From a virus (Duplodnaviria > Caudoviricetes): a stretch of DNA of 41,986 bases. Below the pieces are notes generated by a model. It was not told the DNA's origin. It searched no databases and saw only the letters and a program-made list of their open reading frames with translations. Below, piece after piece: positions 1,446-41,250 of the stretch (its first letter is position 1; each line of letters opens with the position of its first letter). A program made the translations under genes and the position numbers. Where the stretch lies: the IMG/VR virus record IMGVR_UViG_3300033076_000121, positions 1 through 41,986 of that record. The stretch is one strand, 5' to 3'.

Positions 1446-1520
1446 ACAGTCTCCAGGTGACAGGGCAGGATCGCCCACAGTTGCCCTCTGGTGATCCAGA
1501 TGGGCAACTATTGGAAATCG

Positions 1521-1534
1521 TTGTCAGATGGTAA
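1521..1534. promoter_or_regulatory. Putative repressor operator TTGTCAGATGGTAA
   Basis: Intergenic; near-identical context to 2218-2242. Confidence 0.6.
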
Positions 1535-2189: not shown

Positions 2190-2227
2190 GGTAGAGCTCC
2201 TGTTGAATGATTGACTGTTGGAAATGA

Positions 2228-2241
2228 TTGTCAGATGGCAA
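2228..2241. promoter_or_regulatory. Putative repressor operator TTGTCAGATGGCAA (degenerate partner at 2211-2224)
   Basis: Pseudo-palindrome upstream of the Gp88-like gene, in a 17-bp-phased tandem. Confidence 0.6.
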
Positions 2242-3364: not shown

Positions 3365-3379
3365 TCCAATTGGGCAACC
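3365..3379 (-). promoter_or_regulatory. Putative phage RNAP promoter GGTTGCCCAATTGGA (phiOR-like position)
   Basis: One of five near-identical 15-mers; immediately after the terminase gene. Confidence 0.65.
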
Positions 3380-5040
3380 TATGCACGTACCATCCATGTG
3401 GTCTGTTGCTTGGAGGTCATCCCAAAGACATTCTTGTGGAAGTTCTTGAGTTCCTTATCCATGGCAGACCCCATGATCTCTGCAGCTGCCTTGTTGTTGT
3501 CCCGTGCCATTGACTCGGTCCAATAGGCTACAGCGATGGCTAGGGCATCCAGTCTATCGTCATGGACCAGGGCACCACGATCTCTCGTGAGTCTGGTCAT
3601 CTGATAGAACAGGGAGTACTTCACATCCTTGGCTGTGTCGAAGTCCTTCTGGATCACCCTCTGGTCAACTATGAGTCTATGCGTGGACATCACAGGTTCC
3701 AGGGTGTCGATGATACGGGCTTCCTTCTGGGTGGAGTGCTTCACCTCCTCCACAGTGCAGGGATAGATCCTCTGCAAGACAGGCTTCAGGAGCTGGGTGA
3801 ACATACCATCACCGAAGTTAGCCTCGATGATGATGGCCTTGACCTGGTTCCTCTTGGCTGCATAGGCCAGAGCCTCAAGGGTCTCGAGTTCATAGCCTCC
3901 GGAGATTCCTCCAGCCTCTGTGAGGAAAAGGTTCCCTGCCAGGTGCTTCACACAGGCATAGCCGGTCTCGTCCTTGCCACGGCCACTGGGGTCGATGGAC
4001 ATGACAGCTCCGGTGTACTCAGACATATCGTCGGAGTGCCACATGGGGCGGTAGAACCTGTCCCCCGTGAGAGCCACATTGGGTAGATCGTTGATGCACA
4101 GCTCAGGTGCTGCAGCCCAGGCCAGCTTCAGGTGACCCATGGTGGGTCCAAGGTTCTGCACAATGAGGTCCTGGACCTTCAGGGGGTACCTGTCGCCATC
4201 ACTGAGGCTGGTGTCGAGCATGAACTGCAGGGCAAAGCCAGCACGTCCATAGGAGGCCTTACGCTCCATCAGGTCAGCCTCATCGAAGCGTTTGCTGTCG
4301 GTGGGCATCCCTGCGTTGCTGGAGTCAGTCTCGAGGGCCTTGGTCACCATGGGTGCCAGACTGCCCTTGTAGCTCTCCACCTTGTTCAGTTCAGGGTACA
4401 GAGCAGGCCAGACTCGGATCTCATAGCCACGCTCAGGCAGCTGGTTGTACAGGGACATCTCAGTCTGGGGTGTACCCAGGTAGATGATCCGACCACCAGG
4501 CTTCAAGATAGCGTCGAATTCCTTGACAGACTCCGAGAGCTTGTCTCGCATCATCTGTGTGGCTGAGTTGTTGGGGACCTCTACGTCATCGGCAATCAGT
4601 ACGTCCGCACGGGAACCGGTAATCTGACCGGTGATACCCACAGACTTGACAGACGGGGAATGGTCCGGGGTGGCTGGTCCAACATCGAATGCGATAACGG
4701 AGTCACGCTGACCGTCACTGGGCCGTAAATGGTGGAGTACTGGTATCTCATTGATCAATCGCTTGACGAATGTGGAGAAAGCATCAGCTCGTTCCTTCGA
4801 GGCAGACACCACGAGGATCTTCAGTTGAGGGTTGTTGAGCAGGAGCCAGCACACAAAGGCACTGGTCAGCCAGGACTTGCCGACCCCTCGAAAGGCTTCG
4901 ATGACGGAGCGTCGAGGTCCGTTCTGTAGGTAAGAGGCAATGTCGTACTGAACCGGAGTCGGGTCAGGTAAGTTGAGATGTTTCCAGACTAAGTAGGTGA
5001 ACTTGCGGAAATCTTTAAGTACAGGGTGTTTGTTATCCAT
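3379..5040 (-). CDS. terL: Terminase large subunit (T7 gp19-like)
   Basis: AFRGVGKS Walker A, IADDVE Walker B, LGTPQ, IDPSGRGKDE and HDDRLDAL nuclease motifs. Confidence 0.97.
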   Translation of the reverse strand: MDNKHPVLKDFRKFTYLVWKHLNLPDPTPVQYDIASYLQNGPRRSVIEAFRGVGKSWLTSAFVCWLLLNNPQLKILVVSASKERADAFSTFVKRLINEIPVLHHLRPSDGQRDSVIAFDVGPATPDHSPSVKSVGITGQITGSRADVLIADDVEVPNNSATQMMRDKLSESVKEFDAILKPGGRIIYLGTPQTEMSLYNQLPERGYEIRVWPALYPELNKVESYKGSLAPMVTKALETDSSNAGMPTDSKRFDEADLMERKASYGRAGFALQFMLDTSLSDGDRYPLKVQDLIVQNLGPTMGHLKLAWAAAPELCINDLPNVALTGDRFYRPMWHSDDMSEYTGAVMSIDPSGRGKDETGYACVKHLAGNLFLTEAGGISGGYELETLEALAYAAKRNQVKAIIIEANFGDGMFTQLLKPVLQRIYPCTVEEVKHSTQKEARIIDTLEPVMSTHRLIVDQRVIQKDFDTAKDVKYSLFYQMTRLTRDRGALVHDDRLDALAIAVAYWTESMARDNNKAAAEIMGSAMDKELKNFHKNVFGMTSKQQTTWMVRA

Positions 5041-5132: not shown

Positions 5133-5357
5133 TTATTCAGCCAGGTGAGCTTTTAGCTCCTCCAGGCCACCAAGGTGAGTATCCTCCCAGAAAACCTGAG
5201 GGACAGTCTTGAAGCCCTTGCTGAGGAACTCTTGAAGCTCACCCTTGGGCAGAGCCATGACATCCACATAGGTGAACTCATGGCCCTTGGAGGAAAGGAG
5301 GTCTTTAGCTGTCTTGCAGGGCTGACAGCCGGATCGCCCGTAGATCGTGTATGTCAT
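5133..5357 (-). CDS. Glutaredoxin / NrdH-like redoxin
   Basis: CQPC active site, TVPQVF and LGG motifs; start at MTYTIYG (TAATG overlap). Confidence 0.9.
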   Translation of the reverse strand: MTYTIYGRSGCQPCKTAKDLLSSKGHEFTYVDVMALPKGELQEFLSKGFKTVPQVFWEDTHLGGLEELKAHLAE

Positions 5358-5581
5358 TAACCGGCTTGCTGACCCACGATCTCGGGGTTTGCCATGAGAT
5401 AGTAGGTGTGAGTGGTAGAGACAGTGCTCACGAACTTGATGACACCGCAGCGAGTCCACTCAGAGACAGTCTGCTTGATACCATTGATGGTGAGGGTGTC
5501 GGTGCCCACAGGAGCGGTAGCATTGGTAACGGTGAAGGGCTGGCCTGGAGATTCAAAGCCAGAGACGGTAAAAGAAGCCAT
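5357..5581 (-). CDS. Hypothetical protein
   Basis: TAAGGA RBS; tightly packed between neighbours. Confidence 0.7.
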   Translation of the reverse strand: MASFTVSGFESPGQPFTVTNATAPVGTDTLTINGIKQTVSEWTRCGVIKFVSTVSTTHTYYLMANPEIVGQQAG

Positions 5582-5590
5582 TGGTAATCC

Positions 5591-5944
5591 TTAAGATAGA
5601 TTCTTGAGTTTATAGAGGACTGACTGGTAGGTCGCCACGATGTTCTGGTAGAGGTTGTCCAGGGATTCATTTTCCTTGGTACACCCATCACAGTTCTCAT
5701 TGAGCCATGCCAGCTCGTCCTCAAGGAACGAGGTGATCTCAGCCTTGGCAGGAGCCTTCAGAGGCACGTTGCCGATCAGACCAAACTGACCCTGGTAGGC
5801 TTCTACAAGGGCATCGATCTGGTCGATGATTGAGTCGTAGAAGTCACCCAAAGCCACATGCTGAGCGTAGCTCTTGGTCTTCCAGTGAGCTAGGTGAGCC
5901 ACGTTCCGTGCAGTGAAGGCACGGGAGACAAGTTCTTCAATCAT
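5591..5944 (-). CDS. Ferritin/Dps-like four-helix protein (DUF5856-like)
   Basis: HLAHW..KSYAQHVALGDFYD...D.LVEAYQG resembles the Dps ferroxidase signature. Confidence 0.75.
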   Translation of the reverse strand: MIEELVSRAFTARNVAHLAHWKTKSYAQHVALGDFYDSIIDQIDALVEAYQGQFGLIGNVPLKAPAKAEITSFLEDELAWLNENCDGCTKENESLDNLYQNIVATYQSVLYKLKNLS

Positions 5945-23094: not shown

Positions 23095-23104
23095 GTTTTT
23101 CCAA

Positions 23105-23269
23105 TTAGTAATCGACCAAAACAATACCCGAGCTGTACACCCGGATCAACTTAGCCTTGGGATCGACTTCGAATTTTACTTTGTCAGCACCGTCACCGAA
23201 ATACAGGATCTCAGGTGCTTTGTTTTCTTTAGGCTCATCGACGAGACGAGCCGGTTTAGCGTTAGCCAT
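23105..23269 (-). CDS. Hypothetical protein, 54 aa (MANAKPARLVDEPKENK...GIVLVDY)
   Basis: Read manually; AAGGA RBS; overlaps the portal stop and fills the gap to the scaffold gene. Confidence 0.7.
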   Translation of the reverse strand: MANAKPARLVDEPKENKAPEILYFGDGADKVKFEVDPKAKLIRVYSSGIVLVDY

Positions 23270-25294: not shown

Positions 25295-25975
25295 TTAGAT
25301 TCCAAGGCGATCAAAGGCCTTGACCCACATGGCGCAGATGTCAGAACGGACGATGTCATCCACAGAGAATTCCACGTGTTCGACGGGGAGTTTCTGCTTC
25401 TGGATCATCTCAATGATGGTCTTCAGACCTGAGGTCATCTTCAGGTCGGACTGCTTGATGTCACCATTCAGCAGGACCTGGGACTCCTCCCCAATGCGGG
25501 TCAGGAACATCTTCATCTCGGAAGGTGAGGTGTTCTGAGCCTCGTCCAGGATCACAAAGGCCCGGTTGAAGGTGCGGCCTCGCATCACTTCGAACGGGAC
25601 AATGTCGATCTGGCGCTTACGCATGGCGATCTCGTAGACCTCCTTGCCCAGGCAGGCCTCTAGGACATCCGTGAATGGGATCACCCACGGTGCCATCTTC
25701 TCCTCCATGGTTCCTGGGAAGAAACCCAGAGACCGTCCTGCAGCCACGTTGGGTCTGGTCAGGATGATCTTGTCGATCTGCCCCTTGGCAAACAGGGTGG
25801 CGGCATAGACAGACGCAATGTAGGTCTTGCCGGTCCCTGCTGGCCCCGTGACGATCACTTGGGGAGAGGATTTGAGGGCCTTGATGTAGGCAGCTTGCTT
25901 GTCGTTCTTTGGGAGGAGGATGACCTGACGGCCCTCCCCTTCCTTAGCACGGTACTTCGATGTGCGTTTTGTCAT
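25295..25975 (-). CDS. phoH: PhoH-family ATPase
   Basis: GPAGTGKT, LGFFPG, MRGRTF, ILDEAQN, LTRIG, GD..QSD and VRS motifs. Confidence 0.95.
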   Translation of the reverse strand: MTKRTSKYRAKEGEGRQVILLPKNDKQAAYIKALKSSPQVIVTGPAGTGKTYIASVYAATLFAKGQIDKIILTRPNVAAGRSLGFFPGTMEEKMAPWVIPFTDVLEACLGKEVYEIAMRKRQIDIVPFEVMRGRTFNRAFVILDEAQNTSPSEMKMFLTRIGEESQVLLNGDIKQSDLKMTSGLKTIIEMIQKQKLPVEHVEFSVDDIVRSDICAMWVKAFDRLGI

Positions 25976-27948
25976 TAACGAATAGGACAGGCCCCGGTCG
26001 CACACTCTTCCCCTTGGATTTCTTCAAAGGAATTTGCAGCTTCCAGGTTGATTGGTTGAAGGATCGAGGCGTATTCCTCGAACCGTTCCTTGGTGACTAC
26101 CTCTTGAGGAAGATACAAGTAACCTAATGCTTTAGCATCCTTTGTGGGATCAGCACGGAACAAGAAGCTCACACCCACGTAGACGTTCCAGTTCTCCATG
26201 AGCCAGTCGATGATGGCCGGGACCTCATCTACTGAGTAGGAGATGGTCGCAGAGACGTTCTGCTGGCACCAGTTCTCCATGATGAGCTTGTAACGCTCGA
26301 GCTGACTAATGGCCGACTCGAGGTTGACCTCCAGCTCCTTACCGTCACGGACTACCTTCTCGAAGGGTACGTCATCCCAGCTCACCGGGAAGGTGATCAG
26401 GACAGACTCAGCATCGGTCGGGTTGTCGATGACCTTGTAGCCAGAGGCACGGCACAGCGGTACCAGGGGGTCATGCTTGGAGAAGTTGACGTTGTTGAAG
26501 ACGTACTTCCCTAGTGGCTTGTGGACCCCTTCCGTAGTGTCCATGATTTTACTAAGAGTGCCTGAGGGTTTGATCGTTGTGACATTCTTAGGTCGTGGGG
26601 TTCCCAGCTCATCAGCCATGCTATAAGCGCCTGAAGTTGCTGTTCGTTGAAGCTCTGTGTAATCGTACGCTGCAAGGTCCGGTCGGCGGACAATACCAGT
26701 AAGGCCAACCCCGCATAGGCGTAGGAAGTCATTGTTGAGGTGCCATGCCTCCTGGAGAATACCGTCACGCAGATTGACACATGTCTGCCGGTAGTTAGCA
26801 CGGGCTGCAATGTGGACAGCTCTGCGAAGACCGGAGGAATCACCTTTGAATTTTCCAACATCCACCTCAGTCAGGTTACAGAAAGACTTGTTGCCCAGCA
26901 GGATCTCGGCACAGGGGTTGCAGCCCTTGAACCAGGGTGCTCGCTTGGCTGCAGTCTGACCGTTGATGAAGCCAGGCTCAGAGCCACCGGCCTCCACCAT
27001 CATGTCGAAGATCTGCTCGAGCTCGGAGCGCAGGGGCTTGGTCTTGAACAACAGGGAGTTGTTCGACTGAGCTCGCTGGATGTTGGTCACCCACCAGTCT
27101 TTCTTGGCGACTGCGAACTCTTGCCACTCATCCTCACCGTAAGTGAAGAGAGCAATCTCAGCAGAGCGCCGACTAGACAGGACAGTACCAAGCCAATTGA
27201 CAATATCAAGGATGTCAATGCGAGTAAGCAGACTACCAGCGCGGCGATTAAGTATGTGGAAAATAGCTTCATATGCTTTGGCGATGGCAGCATCACCAGA
27301 AGAGATCCAGCCGTAACCCTTCAGACGTTCACCAGCAGGACGAATCTGCGAGAAATCGAGTACAAGTTTACGGGCGGCATGTGGATGAGCGGCCAGCTTA
27401 CCGACTGACTTGGCCCAGGCTTCTGCGGAGTCTCCGACAGTGATGGTCCAGGTTCCGGTCTCGGGGTCCCAGCTTTCCTTGTTACCTTCGTGTCCACCTT
27501 TTTCTGTCCTCGTTGAACGGATTACTTCCAGTTCTTGGATTGGTTTCGGAAAGCCCGTAAGCTGCCCAATAATAGGAGCAAAGCCAACACCGCAGCCCTG
27601 CAGAAGGAGCCACAGGATGTCCACAAGATCTTGAACGGTTTCAGCATTTGTAAAACTACAGTTGAATTGAGAGGCCTCACGCTGCTTGGCAACCGAGGTA
27701 CCACCCAGCCACAGGGAGCGGCCAGACATCAGGACCTTGCGCTCCATCATCAGGGTACGGAGTTCTTCCAGCTCACTGTTGTCCACAGTGCTGGCACCTG
27801 CACGGTCCCAGAGCCAACGCTGGTGGTCGATCACTCGGTCTACAGTCTGTCCCCAGGATTCGAAATTCTTCCCGGAGTCATCGGTGGGGCGGTTGTATGT
27901 GCGGCGTGTAATCAGCTGCGCACGGAGGGATGGATTAGCGGTCGTCAC
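25975..27948 (-). CDS. nrdJ: Class II (adenosylcobalamin-dependent) ribonucleotide reductase
   Basis: RTY.R, FNC, RRSAEI, NPCAEI, FCNLTEV, TTIKPSGT and C-terminal CATGACP; no beta-subunit gene present. Confidence 0.93.
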   Translation of the reverse strand: MTTANPSLRAQLITRRTYNRPTDDSGKNFESWGQTVDRVIDHQRWLWDRAGASTVDNSELEELRTLMMERKVLMSGRSLWLGGTSVAKQREASQFNCSFTNAETVQDLVDILWLLLQGCGVGFAPIIGQLTGFPKPIQELEVIRSTRTEKGGHEGNKESWDPETGTWTITVGDSAEAWAKSVGKLAAHPHAARKLVLDFSQIRPAGERLKGYGWISSGDAAIAKAYEAIFHILNRRAGSLLTRIDILDIVNWLGTVLSSRRSAEIALFTYGEDEWQEFAVAKKDWWVTNIQRAQSNNSLLFKTKPLRSELEQIFDMMVEAGGSEPGFINGQTAAKRAPWFKGCNPCAEILLGNKSFCNLTEVDVGKFKGDSSGLRRAVHIAARANYRQTCVNLRDGILQEAWHLNNDFLRLCGVGLTGIVRRPDLAAYDYTELQRTATSGAYSMADELGTPRPKNVTTIKPSGTLSKIMDTTEGVHKPLGKYVFNNVNFSKHDPLVPLCRASGYKVIDNPTDAESVLITFPVSWDDVPFEKVVRDGKELEVNLESAISQLERYKLIMENWCQQNVSATISYSVDEVPAIIDWLMENWNVYVGVSFLFRADPTKDAKALGYLYLPQEVVTKERFEEYASILQPINLEAANSFEEIQGEECATGACPIR

Positions 27949-28249
27949 CTGAGCCTTTGATAGTGTTATTTGCCTTGCGGCGGGTTAGTTTGTCGATGTT
28001 ACCTTGGGCCACCTCATCGAGGTCAAAGCCGTTGTCTCGTGCAATCGCAGAGACGCACCACAGGATGTCACCAAGTTCCTTCTTGATGTTCTCTAAGTGG
28101 GTGCCAATGTTTCCACCATCACGGATCATCTTGGCTTCGTGAGACATCAGCTCACCGACCTCTCCTGCCAGGTTCAGCAGGGCGTACTGCTCATCGGCAG
28201 ACTTGAGGCGGAAAGACAGAGCGATGTCCTGATACTCATTGAACTTCAT
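27935..28249 (-). CDS. MazG-like nucleotide pyrophosphohydrolase
   Basis: LAGEVGE, KKELGDILW, NIDKL..R and GSGDDR motifs. Confidence 0.9.
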   Translation of the reverse strand: MKFNEYQDIALSFRLKSADEQYALLNLAGEVGELMSHEAKMIRDGGNIGTHLENIKKELGDILWCVSAIARDNGFDLDEVAQGNIDKLTRRKANNTIKGSGDDR

Positions 28250-28590
28250 AGTTTTTCCAGTTGAATCAGTAGGTCAATGTAATGCTTGGCCTTCTCCAGA
28301 TCCTTCTTGCCACCCTTGTCACGCCAGCGGGAGATGTACTTCACCACGTTGGCCTCACAGTAGCCAAGGTTGTTCTTGGTGATGTACTCGACAGGCTGAA
28401 TGGCCATGGACTTGTAGTGACCGCCACCAACCTGGACAGACAGGGGGTCAGTGCCAATGGCCTTGATGTAATCCTTCTGAGCCTTTGACAGGTCGTTGAA
28501 GGCCTCGTCCTCCTGTGGGGTAACCGGAGGATCAATCTCAGGGAACAGTGGCATCTGGCCACCAAAGAAGGCACGAGTCATGGGGTCCAT
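28246..28590 (-). CDS. DUF3310 / T7 gp1.7-like protein (putative nucleotide kinase)
   Basis: QVGGGHY, IQP.EY, NVVKY..R..KGG..DL.KA.HY motifs. Confidence 0.85.
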   Translation of the reverse strand: MDPMTRAFFGGQMPLFPEIDPPVTPQEDEAFNDLSKAQKDYIKAIGTDPLSVQVGGGHYKSMAIQPVEYITKNNLGYCEANVVKYISRWRDKGGKKDLEKAKHYIDLLIQLEKL

Positions 28591-29360
28591 AGAATTACTT
28601 TCTTCTGAATGTCGTCATAGTCTTGAGCACGGAGGATACGTGCCACACGGGCTTGGGTCAGAGCTTCCTCTTCGCCAAAGCCTGCCTTGTCGTAGGCCTT
28701 CACCACGTGCTTCCAATAGAGCTCACGGAGCTGCTGAGGGTTGGCCCATGGGGTGCCCTCATCGAGAGCAGCCTGGAGGATCTTCTCGGCTGTCTTAGGG
28801 CCGATCCCTGGGCAACCCGCATAGCCATCCGTGGTGTCCCCGGTGAGGGTCTGGATCATGTGCCACTTGTCAGCCTGGTGCTCAGAGATCTCAAAGAACT
28901 CATCGCGGCCAAAGTTGTAGTGCTTGCCAGGGATGGTCTTGAAGTCCTTATCCAAGGAACACACGATGATGTCTCGGACAGGGTCCAGCTTGGTGACTGT
29001 GGTGGCGTAGATGCCGATCACGTCATCGCCCTCGAGCTCAGGGATCGAGACACACTGGTGCTTCTTGAAGGCGTACTCACGGAGGAACTTCAGGAGCATC
29101 GGCTTGCGAGTGCCAGCACGGTTGCTCTTGTAGGTGGGAAGCACGGACTTCCTCCAGTTGTCCTTGTCGGAGAACACGAGGAGGTACTGGGTGGCTTCCA
29201 CTTTCTCGAGGAGAGAACTGAGAGATGACTCGAAGGCAGTGATGGCATCCTGCTCAAAGGCATGGAGTGTCCACAGGCCATCTTCCCAGTCTATGGGCTT
29301 CTCGCTTACGGCTGCTGCTTGGTAGGCGAGGATATCGGCATCGATGAGAGCAAGGCGCAC
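28578..29360 (-). CDS. 5'-3' exonuclease (gp6-like)
   Basis: LIDAD, YKSNR, LEGDD, DKDFKTIPG and GDTTDGYAGCPGIG motifs. Confidence 0.95.
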   Translation of the reverse strand: MRLALIDADILAYQAAAVSEKPIDWEDGLWTLHAFEQDAITAFESSLSSLLEKVEATQYLLVFSDKDNWRKSVLPTYKSNRAGTRKPMLLKFLREYAFKKHQCVSIPELEGDDVIGIYATTVTKLDPVRDIIVCSLDKDFKTIPGKHYNFGRDEFFEISEHQADKWHMIQTLTGDTTDGYAGCPGIGPKTAEKILQAALDEGTPWANPQQLRELYWKHVVKAYDKAGFGEEEALTQARVARILRAQDYDDIQKKVILWTP

Positions 29361-30022
29361 GGCTTTTCTTTCTGTTCAATATTCATCAAAAATTCCCAAG
29401 AGGTCGGGAACAACTCCCACATGGACTCATGAATCTTCTGAGCCACGTCTTGGGTTTCCTTCTGAGTATGCGAGTCCATACGGAGCTGGCACATGCGAGC
29501 CCAGGCGTAGAGGGTTCCGCTCCAGATCCACTCAGTCATGGTGTTCTGAGGGAGAACCATGCGAGCCTGCTCAGGGCAGACTCCTTGGGCCAAGAGGTTG
29601 TTGTATAGGGAGACAGTCTCACAGCCATGGTTAATGATGAAGCGATCATCACTTAAGGCCTGCTCGTCTGAGCTTCCCTGCTTCACATTCTCTGCAGCCT
29701 TGCGCCACACCTCAGGGAAGAAGAACTCAGGCTCAGAGTTCACATAGCGACGACTCACCTCGTTCCATGAGAAACCCACGGTGTGCTTGACGAGCTGTCG
29801 AGCCACGAAGATCGGAGCCTTGACACGGAAGGTTGCCGAGCAGTGAGCGAATGGGGACCAGTGGTTGTGCTTAGCCAGGTACTTGATCAGGCCACGGTCA
29901 GTGGCGTGGTCGAACTCTGAGTGCTCCTTGTCGAAGCTGACTCGAGCAGCGTTGACCACGGTAAGGTCGCTGCCCATATGGTCCATGTATTCAACGTCAA
30001 TGTCGGCAATCTTCATGTTCAT
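29306..30022 (-). CDS. thyX: FAD-dependent thymidylate synthase
   Basis: VNAARVS, HWSPF, ARQLVKH....WNEVSRRY and EQARMVLP motifs. Confidence 0.95.
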   Translation of the reverse strand: MNMKIADIDVEYMDHMGSDLTVVNAARVSFDKEHSEFDHATDRGLIKYLAKHNHWSPFAHCSATFRVKAPIFVARQLVKHTVGFSWNEVSRRYVNSEPEFFFPEVWRKAAENVKQGSSDEQALSDDRFIINHGCETVSLYNNLLAQGVCPEQARMVLPQNTMTEWIWSGTLYAWARMCQLRMDSHTQKETQDVAQKIHESMWELFPTSWEFLMNIEQKEKPCALLSSMPISSPTKQQP

Positions 30023-34593: not shown

Positions 34594-35052
34594 TTAGTTA
34601 TCCAATTGTGCAACCTTAAGCCATTGTGCTACATCAAACGATGGGCAGGCCTTGGCTACTTTGGGGAAGTCTCGGTGACCCTGGATCTTTGCCTTGGGGT
34701 ATCGGTGCTTCAGGTCAATCAGCAGCTGCTTCAGGCTCTTGAACTGAGCCTCAGTGAAGTTGTTCTCTGCCTTGTTCACATCGTCAGCGTTGACACCACC
34801 GACCATGCAGATGCCGATGGAGACTGCGTTCCAGTTCTCCACGTGGGCACCAATGACGGACTCCTCACGCCCCTCCTCCACGGTACCGTCTCGACGGATC
34901 ACGTAGTGGTAGCCGATGCAGGCCCAGCCCTTGGCACGATGCCACTTGTCAATGTCCTTAGCGCCAATGTTCTGCTTAGAACTGGTGGCGCTGCAGTGAA
35001 TAGCGATGAAGTCAGTCTTCTCTCGCTTCTTGGTATTAGACTTGTATGCCAT
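34594..35052 (-). CDS. N-acetylmuramoyl-L-alanine amidase (T7 lysozyme gp3.5-like)
   Basis: IHCSAT, IGYH, GAH, GHRD and KACPSF motifs. Confidence 0.95.
   Translation of the reverse strand: MAYKSNTKKREKTDFIAIHCSATSSKQNIGAKDIDKWHRAKGWACIGYHYVIRRDGTVEEGREESVIGAHVENWNAVSIGICMVGGVNADDVNKAENNFTEAQFKSLKQLLIDLKHRYPKAKIQGHRDFPKVAKACPSFDVAQWLKVAQLDN
34601..34615 (-). promoter_or_regulatory. Putative phage RNAP promoter GGTTGCACAATTGGA
   Basis: Conserved 15-mer just upstream of primase-helicase. Confidence 0.7.
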
Positions 35053-36414: not shown

Positions 36415-36439
36415 TTGTTTCCTATAGAGGTTTGGGTAT

Positions 36440-36469
36440 TCCAATTGTGCAACCATTGCCAACTGGTAA
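36440..36469 (-). promoter_or_regulatory. Putative phage promoter (36440-36454) abutting putative operator TTGCCAACTGGTAA (36456-36469)
   Basis: Both recurring motifs sit side by side directly after the RNAP gene. Confidence 0.7.
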
Positions 36470-36473
36470 ACGT

Positions 36474-38987
36474 TCAGGCAAAGCAGTAGCGTGACTGCAT
36501 CACCTGCTCGAGCTCCAAGGTTCCTCGTTTAGGCAGAGCCTCGAGTTTCTCCTGGTTCTTGTCGCCAAGCTGCTGGACGATCTCATCCCTGAAGGACTCG
36601 ATCACATCCACCTCGCCGTACATCTCCACGAAGCTCTCTCGGACCACGTGGTAGAGGCCTTCGACATCCCCTGCGGTGGTCCCGAACGAGTCATGGATCA
36701 TCGCGAAGTTGTCGATGCCTGCCTGCTTGGCTCGCACCACAGTCAGCATCATGTGGGCTGCATCGCAGGAGTGGACAAAGTTGGGAGCGATCCCAGAGGA
36801 CTGCTTGCGGCGGTCTAGATTGTCCTTGTCCTGGTACATCGTGAGATACACCAGCTTGCCGTTGATCGCGGTCTTCACCTTGCGTTTCTCCAGATCGGCA
36901 TAGGCCTGCATCACAGGGAAACCCACGGGTGTCGTCCAGCGAACTGGGAGCTCCTCCGCAGCAGCCAGAGAGGCAGCATGCTGGAGCCACTTCATGGCCT
37001 CGCCAGCTTTCACCAGGACCTGGTTCACAGCCACCCAGATGGCCTTCGCCATGTACTGGGCACCTTGGTAGCCATCACCCTGGAAAGGGAACTCCTTGCC
37101 GCTCTGCTTGGCAGGACGGATGATGTCCTCCATGAGCTGCTCCTTGAAGCCATACTCCTTGGAGCCGTAGGCCAGCGTCATGACGGATCGCTTGGTCACC
37201 TTGCGGGTGATCCCGAAGGCCTTCCACTGGGCAGCGATGGTCTTGGTGCCCTGCTTGACGTAGGCCACACCCTCATCGGTGTGCCGCAGCTCGTCCTCAG
37301 TGCCGTTCAGAAGGTTGTCTTCGACCTGTTCCAGAACCTTGTTCGCCACGAGCTGGTAGACATCCGCAGGGAGGTCCCTGGGCATCAGGTTGACCGCAGC
37401 TCCGCCAACTTCGTCTCGCAGCATTGCAGAAAAGTGTTGAATTCCAGAGCATGAACCGTCCATAGCCACGGGCAGCTTTGATACGAACGACTCACCATGC
37501 TCAGTGAAACCTTGCCACTCGAAGCAAAACGCAAGGAACTGCCAGGGCTTGTCAATCTCAACACCGCCGACTGTTCCACACCACCCTCGGTGGTTATATG
37601 GATCTCTCGCAATACCAAGAATCTCTTCTTCATTATCCTGTACCCAATTGACACGGTCTTCAAAGCTGGCCTTGTCGAAGCCTGCTGTGTTGGCACCGTG
37701 GATAGCCAACCATTTCCATCCCTCACTGCCCAGAGGCTTGCCATTAGCGAACCGCAGCAGGGCCTTCTGATAGTCCGACCCCTGAGGATTCAGGTGAGGG
37801 ACTGCGTAGATGCGACCACGGAAGTCGAGCTGGTAGGGGAAGAAGACCTTGCGGAACTTCTCGTAGCGACGAGCGATGCCCAAGGCCATGTTGAAGCCGA
37901 TCCTCTGGCCCAACAGGGAGAGGTTCTGCACGTGGATCTTGGCAGCAGCGATGCGGTACTCCCGCTTGGCCTCCTCGTTGGTCTCGATGTCGAAGGGCTT
38001 GGAGGGCAGCTCCAGGCCTTCTCGAGGAGGCAGGCCAGCCATCTCTGAGCCGTTTTCCCACAGGGTGTCCATGACCTCGAGGACCTGGCTGTTGATCTGC
38101 CAGGCGGTACGCTGCAGAGCGTTCACTGCCTCGTACACGATGGGCATGTCGGTGTTCTTCAGCTCGTCCAGGTAGGCCCGGTTCTTCGTCTTCACCAGGC
38201 GCAGGGGCTTGATGTTGGAGGAGACGTAGCCACCGTTGAACGGCGTGGTCCAATCCTTGGGGATCACCACCATGGGCTCATAGACGGGACGCAGGAACTG
38301 GGTGACCTCGTTCTTGCTCTCGATCCACTCCAGCGTCTCAGGCAGGGCCTTCACGTACTTGATGGACTGGTCCTTATCGACCTTCTGGTGGGTCAGCTCG
38401 ACCAGGCCGATGGTCTGGATCAGGATGTCCAGCATCTTGATGCCAACGTGCAGGCGATCAGTGCGGACCCAACGCTGCCAGCCATCCTCGATTCGGTCAG
38501 CCTGACGGACTGCGTAGATGTGCCGGTAGTGGCCTGAGGTACGCTTCTTCGCCCCAATGAGGATCTTCTCGTACTGCTTGCGCTCGGTCTCACGGATCTT
38601 CGAGTAGCGCAGCTCGTCCTCGATGGCCGTGCCAATGGCGACACCCACGAACTGCAGGGTACGCAGCGAGGAGATGCCCGACAGCACTGCCTTGAGGGTC
38701 AGGAAGGCCAGCATGGTGGAGGGCACATCCTTGACCTTGGGGTAGGTCGCAGAGAACCGACCAGCGGCACCCTTGGAGCTTGTCTCCTTCCACTCATCGA
38801 TGGCCTTGGAGAGGATCTCCAGGCGATGGGACAGGATCGTGCTGCCATAGGCCGTGGACTCTTCCCGACCAGCTTGCACCGCCTTGGTGACATCCCGGAG
38901 GTACTTCTCAGCGCCTCGTTGGGTCATGCCTTCCTCCAGTTGAATCTGGATGGACATGAGGTCTTCCTCAGGATTGAAGTTCATCAT
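36474..38987 (-). CDS. Single-subunit DNA-directed RNA polymerase (T7 gp1-like)
   Basis: DFRGR.Y, DGSCSGIQH, R..TKR.VMT..YG, PNFVHS.DA and IHDSFGT motifs. Confidence 0.98.
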   Translation of the reverse strand: MMNFNPEEDLMSIQIQLEEGMTQRGAEKYLRDVTKAVQAGREESTAYGSTILSHRLEILSKAIDEWKETSSKGAAGRFSATYPKVKDVPSTMLAFLTLKAVLSGISSLRTLQFVGVAIGTAIEDELRYSKIRETERKQYEKILIGAKKRTSGHYRHIYAVRQADRIEDGWQRWVRTDRLHVGIKMLDILIQTIGLVELTHQKVDKDQSIKYVKALPETLEWIESKNEVTQFLRPVYEPMVVIPKDWTTPFNGGYVSSNIKPLRLVKTKNRAYLDELKNTDMPIVYEAVNALQRTAWQINSQVLEVMDTLWENGSEMAGLPPREGLELPSKPFDIETNEEAKREYRIAAAKIHVQNLSLLGQRIGFNMALGIARRYEKFRKVFFPYQLDFRGRIYAVPHLNPQGSDYQKALLRFANGKPLGSEGWKWLAIHGANTAGFDKASFEDRVNWVQDNEEEILGIARDPYNHRGWCGTVGGVEIDKPWQFLAFCFEWQGFTEHGESFVSKLPVAMDGSCSGIQHFSAMLRDEVGGAAVNLMPRDLPADVYQLVANKVLEQVEDNLLNGTEDELRHTDEGVAYVKQGTKTIAAQWKAFGITRKVTKRSVMTLAYGSKEYGFKEQLMEDIIRPAKQSGKEFPFQGDGYQGAQYMAKAIWVAVNQVLVKAGEAMKWLQHAASLAAAEELPVRWTTPVGFPVMQAYADLEKRKVKTAINGKLVYLTMYQDKDNLDRRKQSSGIAPNFVHSCDAAHMMLTVVRAKQAGIDNFAMIHDSFGTTAGDVEGLYHVVRESFVEMYGEVDVIESFRDEIVQQLGDKNQEKLEALPKRGTLELEQVMQSRYCFA

Positions 38988-39090
38988 TTCTTATGGTTCC
39001 TTTTAGAGTGGTAACTTAGTGTATGCATCTTTAAATATAACCTAGAGAAGATTATTCTAAAGATACTCTTAGAGATCTCTCTCTCGCCTA

Positions 39091-39105
39091 TCCAATTGTG
39101 CAACC
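39091..39105 (-). promoter_or_regulatory. Putative phage RNAP promoter upstream of the RNAP gene itself
   Basis: GGTTGCACAATTGGA, identical to the copies at 34601 and 36440. Confidence 0.65.
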
Positions 39106-39133
39106 AAAGGGTTCTCCCTCTGTTCTGAATTGG

Positions 39134-39238
39134 TTGTCTACTGGTAATCGATTGACACAGCTGTGACACTAAAAGTGTCACATACTTGTCTTTAGAATAC
39201 CTTTCCCGACTGACATTCATTGCCGTATGGCAATTATA
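39134..39238. promoter_or_regulatory. Control region: operators (39134-39147, 39203-39216, 39220-39233), GTGACACT/AGTGTCAC inverted repeat and minus-strand TATAAT (39238-39233)
   Basis: Motifs read directly from sequence between attP and the RNAP gene. Confidence 0.6.
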
Positions 39239-39242
39239 CCGT

Positions 39243-39284
39243 TAAAAACGGAGAGAACCCCCTGATTTCTCAGGAGGTTCTCTG
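39243..39284 (-). terminator. Intrinsic terminator downstream of the attP tRNA 3' end
   Basis: AGAGAACCTCCTGA-GAAA-TCAGGGGGTTCTCT followed by CCGTTTTT. Confidence 0.7.
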
Positions 39285-39305
39285 TCAGACTGTTTGTCTG
39301 GAAGC

Positions 39306-39361
39306 TGGTGCGGTCGAGAGGACTCGAACCTCCACGGATTTCTCCACTAGCACCTCAAGCT
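39306..39361 (-). other. attP core: 3' half of tRNA-Leu(GAG)
   Basis: AGC-TTGAGGT-GCTAG anticodon arm, long variable arm, GGTTCGAGTCC T-loop and CCA end; no D-arm or 5' acceptor strand; adjacent to integrase. Confidence 0.9.
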
Positions 39362-39375
39362 GAGTGCGTACAGAG

Positions 39376-39449
39376 AAATCAATCACTTAGGGTGACACAA
39401 CTCCAGAAAATCTGACGCTTTCTGACACAGCTCAATGGCCCGTGTCACC
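39376..39449. promoter_or_regulatory. IHF site and integrase arm-type-like TGACAC repeats of attP
   Basis: AATCAAtcacTTA; GTGACAC, CTGACAC and GTGTCAC repeats between the core and the int stop. Confidence 0.6.
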
Positions 39450-39454
39450 GGCAT

Positions 39455-40498
39455 TTACCCGTTCACAACCATGAGATGGGGCGTGGGCTTTACTTGCTCC
39501 AATGCTTCACGGCCTGCCTGCAGATTGCCGGGGGCCAGGTGGGCATAGCGCATGGTGGTGTTGATGGTGGAGTGGCCCATCCATGCCTGCACCACAGCCA
39601 GGGGAACCCCACGCTGGACCATCCGGGATGCACAGGTGTGCCTGAGCATGTGGACGAGGAACTGGGGGTCATCCTCGAGCCCCATGGCCGTCTTCAGGTC
39701 CCACCATTCCCTCCTGAGGCGGTGGAACGTGTAGTCGAAGAACCGCAGCTGGTTGGACCTACGGTGCAGGACCTCGGCCACCCTCTGGGTCACAGGGACA
39801 GCCCTGGCCTTGTCGGTCTTGGTCTGACCGGCATGGAGGTGGAGCATCCCGTTGACGTAGTCGTTGCGCCTGAGGCCCAGCAGCTCCGATCTCCGGAACC
39901 CTGTATCCACAGCCACGATGATGAGGTCCCTGAGCTGGTCCAGACCAAGCTGGGCACACAGGGCCAGAGCCTGGGCTTCCTCCTGCTCGTCCATCCACCG
40001 GATACGGTGCGTACCGGGCTTCCTACGAGGCAGCAGAGGCATCCCTTTGATCCACCCCCTCTGCATCGCCATGGTGAGCATGACGGATAGATGGGACAGC
40101 TTGTGGTTGACCGTCTGGCCCCCGTTGCCTTCCTCTTCCCAGGCCTCGACAGCCTCAAGGGCCATGTCGAAGGTAACCTCCGAGACCGGAGTGTTCTCAG
40201 GGATCTGCTCGAAGAGAGCCTTGATGAAGATCTTGTGGGTCTTCTGGCCGCTGGGTTTGTCCTGATTCCAACGGACCTTCCAAGCGAGGTCGTGGGCCTC
40301 TTTGAGGGTAGGGCCTAGGGAGGCCTTAGGTTGCACGGCTGTAGGCCGTTCTAAGGGGCTTCCTGAGGCTTTCTGACGGGTCAGGGCCTCGAGCTCAGCC
40401 AGCTCAGCTTCAGCTTTGGTCTTGTAGGACTTCCTGAAGCGGTTAGCTCCAGCTCCCACGCAGACCATGTAGCTGTTGCCACGTTCGTAGATTGGCAT
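39455..40498 (-). CDS. int: Tyrosine recombinase / phage integrase
   Basis: Catalytic R (TGFRRSEL), K (TKT), HxxR (HMLRH), GH and Y (TMRYAH). Confidence 0.96.
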   Translation of the reverse strand: MPIYERGNSYMVCVGAGANRFRKSYKTKAEAELAELEALTRQKASGSPLERPTAVQPKASLGPTLKEAHDLAWKVRWNQDKPSGQKTHKIFIKALFEQIPENTPVSEVTFDMALEAVEAWEEEGNGGQTVNHKLSHLSVMLTMAMQRGWIKGMPLLPRRKPGTHRIRWMDEQEEAQALALCAQLGLDQLRDLIIVAVDTGFRRSELLGLRRNDYVNGMLHLHAGQTKTDKARAVPVTQRVAEVLHRRSNQLRFFDYTFHRLRREWWDLKTAMGLEDDPQFLVHMLRHTCASRMVQRGVPLAVVQAWMGHSTINTTMRYAHLAPGNLQAGREALEQVKPTPHLMVVNG

Positions 40499-40499
40499 G

Positions 40500-40820
40500 T
40501 CAGTTATCTCCTAAAATCTTAGTCACGGTGATCCTGCCCTTCTTGGTGAGACGAATTATCTTTTTACGTCTCTCCATTGGGTCCTCGAATGACTCGATGA
40601 GTAGCAGTCCTTCCTCCCTCTTTCGGTTGATTTTTCCAAGAGCGCCAATATGGCGACTAGCAGTTGCCAGCCCTATACCGGCTCTTTTAGCGATCTCTGA
40701 GAGGGACATTCCTTCGTCACTCTCAGCGACTACGAACAGGCACTTGGCCTGGCCTAGCGGCATCTCTGGGTCTATTGCCGAGATGCCTGTGAGAAATCGG
40801 ATTGCGTCCTTAGGTGTCAT
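40500..40820 (-). CDS. MarR-type winged-HTH regulator, candidate repressor
   Basis: MSLSEIAKRAGIGLATASRHI HTH and DPMERRKKIIRLTKKG wing; AGGAG RBS; co-transcribed with int. Confidence 0.88.
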   Translation of the reverse strand: MTPKDAIRFLTGISAIDPEMPLGQAKCLFVVAESDEGMSLSEIAKRAGIGLATASRHIGALGKINRKREEGLLLIESFEDPMERRKKIIRLTKKGRITVTKILGDN

Positions 40821-40894
40821 GGGCTGGTCTGTCTCCTATGCGTCTTAGTGACGCTGGTGAGATTCTCACACCATGAGAGTCCGGTCAACAACAG

Positions 40895-40956
40895 TTTCCA
40901 CTTGGCAACTGTCTGTCCAAACGTAGGGTTACCTTACCCATTGACAATTGTTGCCC
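40895..40956. promoter_or_regulatory. Divergent promoter region with operators TTTCCACTTGGCAA (40895-40908) and TTACCCATTGACAA (40934-40947)
   Basis: Leftward TTGTCA-16-TACGTT and rightward TTGACA both overlap the second operator. Confidence 0.6.
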
Positions 40957-41004
40957 GACTCCACCACAACTGTAACGCAAAGTTTACAGAGGGAGGCACC
41001 AAGG

Positions 41005-41250
41005 ATGCGCTTGTCAAATGCCGTGTTAGAGGCAGTAAGAAGGGGTGGTGTCGAGGTCTATTTTGCAGACAGACATACCACAAGGGTCTGGAACGGCTTG
41101 AGGCTCCAAGGTGAACCCTTGAGGTATGGCGGCTGGTACTGGATGAGGAGATCCAAGGGACGCATCGTGCAGGCAGACGAAGACGGACCATTTAGGACCG
41201 AGTCCGCTGCCATACGTGATGCCTTTGTGAAGCTCCAGCTCAGAGGTTAG
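41005..41250 (+). CDS. Hypothetical protein, the only convincing plus-strand gene (81 aa)
   Basis: GGAGG/AAGG RBS; occupies a gap with no good minus-strand gene; GWYW...GPF.TESAA motif. Confidence 0.7.
   Translation: MRLSNAVLEAVRRGGVEVYFADRHTTRVWNGLRLQGEPLRYGGWYWMRRSKGRIVQADEDGPFRTESAAIRDAFVKLQLRG

Follow-up and report, generated by a model that had tools for sequence, protein, structure and literature searches.

In textbooks the T7-like phages stand for a strictly lytic way of life, and they find use in therapy and biocontrol. How those members that carry an integrase stay dormant despite a self-amplifying RNA polymerase (RNAP) has been hypothesised, with no test in the literature searched. 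This question is raised by the DNA of the virus record IMGVR_UViG_3300033076_000121 (IMG/VR; Duplodnaviria, Caudoviricetes), all 41,986 nucleotides of which were analysed and are called the window here. The record represents a complete T7-like phage that reads on the minus strand and is circularly permuted, and a marR-like gene stands directly before the gene of a tyrosine integrase (int), ahead of a T7-like RNAP gene, in T7 gene order. An earlier reading of the sequence, termed the original prediction below, had described seven 14-bp palindromes as operators by which the MarR-like protein silences the early genes and the entry points to RNAP and class II transcription. The prediction as a whole was partly borne out, and this core claim is well supported by conservation, by helix-motif covariation and by joint loss with marR. 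It appears likely that the seven palindromes are operators of the 106-amino-acid (aa) MarR-fold protein and act in lysogeny, and this protein is taken as the binder because the motif covaries with its recognition helix and because the network is absent where marR was lost. The genes and sites concerned are the following.

40500..40820, minus strand: winged-helix regulator of the MarR fold (marR), 106 aa, PHROG 9665 at an E value of 2e-19, recognition helix L51-L61 (LATASRH...).
39455..40498, minus strand: tyrosine integrase (int), Pfam PF00589 at 87.5 bits, phrog_1, beginning 1 bp past the marR stop codon.
36474..38987, minus strand: T7-like RNA polymerase, phrog_414 at an E value of 1e-285, 65-70% identical to Gyeongsanvirus RNAPs.
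1504..1534, unstranded: operator 1521 with half-site 1504; 1521 begins 4 bp past the stop codon of a gp88-like gene, and a phage-promoter-like word follows.
2211..2241, unstranded: operator pair 2228 and 2211, over a likely host early promoter (TTGATC at 2253-2248, AATCAT at 2229-2224) ahead of the gp88-like gene.
36456..36469, unstranded: operator 4 bp past the RNAP stop codon, spanning -27 to -14 of the predicted first class II phage promoter.
39134..39147, unstranded: operator at -41 to -54 of the predicted RNAP autopromoter, beside arm-type repeats.
39186..39233, unstranded: three-site array with a period of 17 bp, of which 39220 is strong and 39203 and 39186 are weak; it directly follows the attP terminator.
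40895..40908, unstranded: operator O1, ending 6 bp upstream of the marR -35 element, centre at about -48.
40934..40947, unstranded: operator O2, containing the TTGACA (40941-40946, plus strand) of the predicted orf81 promoter.
40951..40964, unstranded: half-site O3, at a distance of 17 bp from O2 and within the predicted orf81 promoter's spacer (-10.4 bits, 98.4th percentile).

The letters and coordinates of the seven 14-mers (1521, 2228, 36456, 39134, 39220, 40895 and 40934) were confirmed, and none of the seven overlaps any of the seven genes checked. The pattern TTGYCA-NN-TGGHAA that had been given for them is exact in four sites, whereas three (39134, 39220 and 40934) deviate by one mismatch, and it yielded 11 strand-hits in the genome compared with a shuffle mean of 0.96 and a shuffle maximum of four. 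Because this pattern had been drawn post hoc from the sites themselves, held-out tests were relied on. With a leave-one-out matrix every site ranked in the top seven of about 42,000 positions, and a blind palindrome finder applied to the 2,964 noncoding bases returned the 14-mer motif as its best result with 15.9 bits per site, the null maximum from six shuffles being 13.6. The proposed scan with a position weight matrix against shuffled controls thus placed the network far above the shuffles, in the window as well as in related phages, and led to the refined operator word TT(G/A/T)(C/T)CA-NN-TG(G/A)(C/T/A)AA.

The conservation of the sites was at first determined in 19 related contigs, whose regulators are 56-92% identical to that of the window, by means of a matrix built from the seven window sites alone. 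This search detected 78 sites of at least 13 bits, compared with about 4.8 summed over shuffles, and they lie mostly at the same control points as in the window. For position-by-position counts 16 more loci were added and six near-duplicates dropped, so that 29 of 35 loci were kept; labels such as L001 denote these and other relative phage loci. O1, the site before marR, reached at least 13 bits in 26 of 28 relatives. Sites of at least 10 bits were found after the RNAP gene in 13 of 16 relatives, before the RNAP autopromoter (39134) in 15 of 23, in the attP array in 13 of 23 (20 of 23 at a threshold of 7 bits) and at the orf81 promoter in 18 of 28. Control windows of like size inside marR, int and the RNAP gene contained no site even at 7 bits (0/28, 0/25 and 0/16 relatives, respectively). 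The search for equivalent motifs in related marR-int-RNAP phages, which the original prediction had named as a check, accordingly revealed the same word in close relatives and other palindromes in distant ones.

The degenerate partners that had been placed 17 bp from the strong sites turned out to be of unequal quality when they were scored with the matrix of the relatives: 2211 is a good site (12.4 bits) and 39203 and 39186 are weak ones (2.6 and 1.6 bits), but 1504 (-6.1 bits) and 40951 are half-sites only. A further element in this register, the phage promoter core at 36439, lies 17 bp from site 36456 and had been overlooked. For a test of the register in the relatives, 13 of 110 contexts were removed in which the neighbour is a phage promoter. 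Among the remaining 97, a partner of at least 0 bits occurred at +17 in 21 and at -17 in eight contexts, while other offsets averaged 0.6% with a maximum of 3.1%. As sequence geometry, the phased 17-bp arrays are thus upheld, and this applies to the relatives too.

With respect to the regulator, the 106-aa protein failed the curated MarR profiles (PF01047, 19.3 bits against a cut-off of 24.6; PF12802, 16.9 against 27), and it is MarR-like but, by profile, not a canonical member of the family. Its structure model (pLDDT 88.7) comprises helices at residues 3-16, 22-32, 40-47 and 51-61, strands at 75-79 and 87-91 and a helix at 93-103, i.e. a winged helix with flanking N- and C-terminal helices. 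The top Foldseek matches were nearly all members of the MarR family, including Rv1404, PcaV, MexR and MepR (best E value 7e-5, probability 1.0, TM score up to 0.75), and typical matches are 30-40 residues longer. The winged-helix fold accounts for the whole protein, which is without a C-terminal self-cleaving peptidase (S24) domain. Homologues precede int in LUZ100, pelagiphages, P-SSP7 and Rhizobium phages, and the blind finder detected different palindromes in four distant marR-int phages: ATCCAC-NN-GCGCAT in LUZ100, TCTCGC-NN-CCGAGA in YIMV22061, ATCCAC-NN-GTGAAT in RHEph01 and GACTCC-TA-GGAGTG in S-SRP02. The LUZ100 word is located in the spacers of the annotated promoters P1 and P2, before phi1 and at +5 past the RNAP gene, and in the distant marR phages a palindrome copy lies at +3 to +5 past the RNAP stop codon, at 4-5 bases in each of these four. 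In HTVC019P, Lo5R7ANS, CRP-227 and the Gyeongsanvirus genomes the same finder returned repeats that are not operators, and for P-SSP7 it gave no clear result. All eight regulator rows with Gln at the position of L51 of the window have an ATSCAC half-site, and these rows come from phages of Pseudomonas, Rhizobium and Pelagibacter and from four marine contigs. By the LUZ100 matrix the other seven Gln rows scored 9.0-17.2 bits, whereas the three rows without Gln (the window, L; YIMV22061, L; S-SRP02, N) each have a word of their own, at -15 to -18 bits by this matrix.

The closest named relatives by RNAP are Gyeongsanvirus phages of Ralstonia and Bordetella (vRsoP-WF2/RsoP1EGY/DU_RP_I/BOESR1 and BB8; clade support 99/99), followed by Limnohabitans phage YIMV22061 with 54% identity, and a betaproteobacterial host of the window phage is likely on these grounds. 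Three Gyeongsanvirus genomes, vRsoP-WF2 (L063), BB8 (L064) and BOESR1 (L065), were examined. Like the window they keep int and a similar phage promoter word, GGTT(G/C)CACAATAGG, but they differ from it in having neither an intact marR nor the network: sites of at least 13 bits numbered one, zero and zero genome-wide, respectively. A marR profile search gave no match in vRsoP-WF2 or BB8, both of which are described as lytic and without a lysogeny module (PMC8703784). BOESR1 carries an unannotated 3' remnant of marR directly before int (L065:7378-7486), which by the marR profile corresponds to the last 32 residues, the wing and the last helix without the helix-turn-helix, so that this phage looks like one that lost its repressor recently. 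As a separate observation, many early genes of two of these genomes (L063 and L065) have a non-palindromic repeat, CTCATCACTGGAGA, upstream of them, which may be a ribosome-site or RNA-processing element.

The gene order of the window runs from the terminase (3379-5040) through the noncoding left end, the early genes, which wrap round the ends of the window, the regulator, the integrase and the attP-like region to the RNAP gene, which is followed by ssb, endonuclease, amidase, primase and polymerase genes. Since the integrase gene starts only 1 bp after the marR stop codon, the two genes likely form one operon. Upstream of marR lies a divergent control region whose predicted promoters, at 40888-40860 on the minus strand and from 40941 onward on the plus strand, are conserved in relatives.

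40860..40888, minus strand: predicted host sigma70 promoter of marR-int, TTGACC (40888-40883), 17 bp, GAATCT (40865-40860).
41005..41250, plus strand: orf81, a backward-facing 81-aa gene with GGAGG at 40992-40996, present in 24 of 26 relatives, 142 homologues.

TTGAC is found 6-7 bp past O1 in 25 of 27 relatives, and nAnnnT follows at 17 bp in 24 of 25. For the predicted autoregulation of marR, the position of O1 upstream of the -35 element suits activation at least as well as repression. From about -48, O1 could activate marR-int or could exclude the alpha subunit; contact with RNA polymerase is favoured because the spacing between O1 and the -35 element is fixed, though the chances seem roughly balanced. 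On the other side, the original prediction had missed orf81, whose promoter carries the two sites 40934 and 40951. The TTGACA of this promoter occurs in 24 of 26 relatives, the two misses being clipped by the extracted window, and 12 of the 24 rows with TTGACA, including the window, reach at least 10 bits with a site in the 17-bp register. The strong site overlaps either the -35 element of orf81 (the window and L001) or the start region 34 bp further on (L008, L009, L017 and L021). This turnover of sites within one register suggests that repression of orf81 matters, with only these 12 of 24 rows reaching 10 bits.

The orf81 product was modelled with a pLDDT of 92.3 as an alpha/beta protein (helix-strand-helix-strand-strand-helix) and not as a helix-turn-helix protein. 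It matched no PHROG, Pfam or PDB-sequence family, no helix-turn-helix family and none of 50,697 phage records, LUZ100 and RHEph01 included, and Atlas matches were under 0.9. A YegP/DUF1508-like or dsRBD-like small fold was considered for it: the best VIA Z score was 5.3 to HVO_2922 (root-mean-square deviation 3.0, 49 residues aligned), followed by 4.7, and Foldseek gave E values above 0.3 in the PDB, with 0.12-0.44 for DUF1508 phage proteins. As an AP2/integrase arm-binding domain orf81 is unsupported (probability 0.1 against the N-terminus of the phage's own integrase, with no such structural match). A minus-strand open reading frame (ORF) at 40934-41191 was rejected as a gene, having no family match and lying under the conserved plus-strand frame of orf81. 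As the repressor is without an autopeptidase, induction would need a ligand or an anti-repressor, and orf81 is a tentative, rather doubtful local candidate for an anti-repressor or an excision factor. Annotated Ant/BRO or KilA-N genes were seen near the RNAP gene in distant marR phages (L057:7853-8344, L061:6688-7296 and L014:9260-9916), and these genes and orf81 may be interchangeable anti-repressors.

Between int and the RNAP gene, arm-like repeats, an IHF-like word, a tRNA-Leu-like core, a terminator, the three phased sites, further arm-like repeats, site 39134 and the autopromoter follow each other.

39153..39448, unstranded: TGTGAC/GTCACA repeats (39153-39181 and 39392-39448), likely integrase arm sites.
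39377-39389, unstranded: IHF-like word between the arm-like repeats and the attP core.
39306..39361, minus strand: likely attP core, the 3' part of a tRNA-Leu-like gene from the GAG anticodon loop to the CCA end, as read from the sequence.
39252..39283, minus strand: intrinsic terminator-like hairpin after the attP core, 14 pairs, conserved in the alignment of relatives.
39092..39106, minus strand: predicted phage RNAP promoter ahead of the RNAP gene (autopromoter), TGGTTGCACAATT followed by GG, one of five copies, with a similar word in Gyeongsanvirus.
36441..36455, minus strand: predicted first class II phage promoter, with its core at 36439-36452 in the 17-bp register with 36456.

The word at 39377-39389 resembles the consensus of IHF sites. 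The likely attP core is 80-84% identical to repeated loci in Ralstonia and Azospirillum replicons, where it is unannotated, and no exact match in a host came up; ARAGORN found no whole tRNA in it and Rfam did not call the tRNA fragment. Repeated palindromes flank the RNAP gene, with 39134 and the array at 39186-39233 upstream, near the promoter, and 36456 downstream, and the three-site array was seen in the alignment of relatives too. The TATAAT that had been noted ahead of the RNAP gene is present (39233-39238, minus strand), but it is private to the window among ten aligned phages, which rules out a conserved TATAAT promoter at this place, and the promoter scan made no call on it. The phased array may stop transcription that reads through towards the RNAP gene. 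The initial expression of RNAP in LUZ100 has been attributed to such read-through (PMC10134795). Two further observations concern this region. A minus-strand ORF at 38984-39220 was rejected as a gene, having no family match, and an eighth, weaker operator-like word (10 bits) lies at 39455-39468 over the int stop codon, beside arm-like repeats, with similar words in L001, L002 and L010; sites would therefore bracket both attP arms.

The phage promoter word (T/A)GGTTGC(A/C)CAATTGG occurs in five copies, all on the minus strand (39106, 36455, 34616, 25294 and 3380), and its first transcribed base is presumably the first G of the final GG, by analogy with T7. Three of these promoters, those of the primase and late regions at 34616, 25294 and 3380, have no operator or palindrome alongside. 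The proposed repression of replication at sites of its own is not upheld, and control of replication would be indirect, as the primase and late phage promoters carry no operator. The promoter core TTGCACAATTGGAA itself resembles the operator (four mismatches, with the CAATTGG centre in common but shifted by one base), so that the repressor may bind only those promoter copies that adjoin a strong operator.

Several observations weigh against the assignment of the palindromes to the MarR-fold protein and to lysogeny. The covariation of helix and motif comprises three changes only, and a tree label test was non-significant (111 and 131 of 500 shuffles were as low). An anchored test with a single seed reached a z value of at least 3 in only nine of 24 marR-bearing loci, with no network in P-SSP7 (-1.2), CRP-227 (0.4) and HTVC019P (-0.5), and it picked a wrong anchor in several loci, for example L010, L029 and L042. 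The low z values of the three marR-less phages (0.9, 0.2 and 0.9) are not decisive alone, because the test also failed in 15 of these 24 loci. Past the RNAP stop codon, moreover, the marR-less phage vRsoP-WF2 keeps a 5/6 palindrome at +5 (L063:8199-8212) and BB8 has a 4/6 palindrome at +5 (L064:9714-9727); these lone words may be relics of operators or variants of a promoter. As site 39134 and the RNAP autopromoter do not overlap, a direct steric block is not evident there. The geometry of O1 is not universal, as the 200 bp upstream of marR in LUZ100 contain nothing stronger than 2.1 bits, and some of the conservation at 40934 may reflect the promoter and not the operator, since the half-site resembles both TTGACA and the integrase arm word. 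Finally, a search of 185,579 species genomes for an integrated copy of the clade gave one short, weak and unrelated match, and none was recognised among the 26 loci matched.

That MarR binds the sites and merely times lytic growth, by early shut-off and damping of RNAP, without being a lysogeny repressor, is improbable, and timing and lysogeny roles are not exclusive. No stable lysogens of LUZ100 were obtained in the work reported (PMC10134795), marR was highly expressed early in HTVC022P infection and the MarR protein of P-SSP7 was interpreted as redirecting transcription to the phage (PMC12753301), and the present searches found no prophage of the clade. Against this stand the adjacency, probably in one operon, of marR and an intact int next to a likely att core, the loss of the network together with marR in lytic relatives and the integration of pelagiphages of the same layout (10.1101/410191). 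More improbable still is that the integrase (by arm-type sites), orf81 or RNAP is the binder and that the 14-mers are recombination or promoter elements. In its favour are the overlap of the half-site TGACAA with the arm-type word GTGACA, the location of four sites within the attP region, the resemblance of the promoter core to the operator and the co-occurrence of orf81 in 24 of 26 relatives; yet three Gyeongsanvirus genomes have kept int and the promoter word but have no network, L015 and L023 keep sites without a detectable orf81, orf81 is unmatched in LUZ100 and RHEph01, which have networks, and three of five phage promoters are without a palindrome. Equally improbable is a transcription factor of the host, probably a betaproteobacterium, that reads the sites and ties phage expression to the state of the cell, for although the whole close clade, with probably related hosts, has one word, the genome contains IHF-like and DnaA-like host words and the operator of Escherichia coli MarR has a similar TTGCC...GGCAA core, Limnohabitans phage YIMV22061 uses a different word at the same places, Ralstonia and Bordetella phages without marR have no network of the operator word, and Pseudomonas, Rhizobium and Pelagibacter phages have one word when the helix is common.

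With the MarR-fold protein as lysogeny repressor, the following course of events can be proposed. After entry, host RNA polymerase would fire three promoters: that of the early genes in the 2228 region, that of marR-int and the divergent one of orf81. Accumulating repressor dimers would each read TT(G/A/T)CCA-NN-TGG(C/T/A)AA, and a second or third dimer would dock on the weaker site 17 bp away, roughly on the opposite face of the DNA and probably cooperatively. The pairs 2228/2211 and 1521/1504 would shut the early genes and O2/O3 would shut orf81, while the array behind the attP terminator and 39134 would block read-through into the RNAP gene, which would come from marR-int at first and, once the phage is integrated, from the host tRNA promoter. 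Site 36456 and the promoter core at 36439 would deny the first class II promoter to any phage RNAP that leaks through, and O1 would either allow marR-int expression to continue or raise it, so that positive feedback and integration at tRNA-Leu would result. If RNAP were made first, the autopromoter (39106), overlapped by no operator, would amplify it and lysis would follow. A complete bistable switch might be built in this way: a MarR-fold repressor that activates itself via O1 and polymerises with a 17-bp period, an attP array that insulates the RNAP gene and gates assembly of the integrase complex, orf81 as a new kind of anti-repressor or excision factor under divergent-promoter repression, one helix residue that sets operator specificity and hence immunity groups across T7-like phages, and Gyeongsanvirus as a lytic lineage after repressor loss. 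That all these parts hold jointly is rather unlikely.

The kind of switch described here has already been hypothesised. In LUZ100 marR and int are co-transcribed (Putzeys et al. 2023, PMC10134795), and the same article ascribes to Boeckman et al. 2022 (Virology 568:86) the hypothesis that RNAP is repressed via MarR sites flanking its upstream promoter. The view that the operators of such phages had not been mapped is thus correct insofar as literature searches, with most subscription journals outside their scope, found no mapped or tested operator beyond the LUZ100 hypothesis, but binding sites as such had been proposed; in the main text on LUZ100 the terms "operator" and "palindrom" are never used and the sites are not mapped there (PMC10134795). 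LUZ100 shares with the window a marR-int operon ahead of RNAP, a terminator between int and RNAP, a phage promoter before RNAP, the hypothesised repression via sites near the RNAP promoter and a homologous regulator (36% identity), and it differs in the operator word and the recognition helix. The present clade adds the divergent orf81 promoter, O1 upstream of the marR -35 element and the three-site attP array. HTVC019P-type pelagiphages, which integrate at tRNA genes including tRNA-Leu (10.1101/410191), and P-SSP7 likewise have the marR-int-RNAP order, but with a Gln-Ser-Ser-Val-Ser-Arg MarR helix and an ATGCAC-type site past RNAP.

In the cI/Cro switch of phage lambda, PRM and PR diverge around the operators OR1-3. 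The window resembles it in its predicted divergent promoters, in a short region with several operators, in one site that is placed to possibly activate the promoter of the repressor and in tandem sites that allow cooperativity. It differs from lambda in a 106-aa MarR-fold repressor without an S24 autopeptidase, in a gene at the Cro position, orf81, that is not of the helix-turn-helix type, in the phage RNAP as the main lytic target and in 14-bp sites with a period of 17. The additions to the earlier hypothesis are the clade-specific operator word, the 17-bp phasing rule, the helix-motif covariation, the co-loss in lytic relatives and the divergent promoter with a non-Cro gene. Exact operator words, positions, the phasing rule and the helix-to-motif prediction constitute a map that can be assayed site by site, and the LUZ100 word sits in a cultured phage at already mapped transcription starts. 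Moreover, the operator network provides a sequence marker that separates live lysogeny modules from integrase-only relics.

Some minor features of the genome were recorded in addition. The next-best match of the operator matrix (12.3 bits) lies at 23098-23111, between the portal and scaffold genes. Host-like metabolic genes are found at 25295-30022 and 5133-5944, encoding PhoH, ribonucleotide reductase, MazG, a nucleotide kinase and thymidylate synthase, and the same two regions encode a thioredoxin domain and a "starvation-inducible transcriptional regulator" (phrog_858). Near the left end of the genome, two tandem words (TTATCCACA) at 2672-2691 on the minus strand match the DnaA-box consensus perfectly. 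Of 18 relative loci scanned, L001, L009, L017, L019 and L067 likewise have one or two such words, and three Gyeongsanvirus genomes have none; the pair is possibly a host-dependent origin or an element of replication-coupled control. A second copy of the IHF-like word of attP (AATCAATCACTTA) is located at 2774-2815 together with TGTCAC/GTGACA arm-like repeats. Each of the 18 marR-bearing relative loci that were scanned has an IHF-like word at the left end, frequently accompanied by arm-like repeats, and it is missing from Gyeongsanvirus; the element may help to circularise or position the genome ends before integration.

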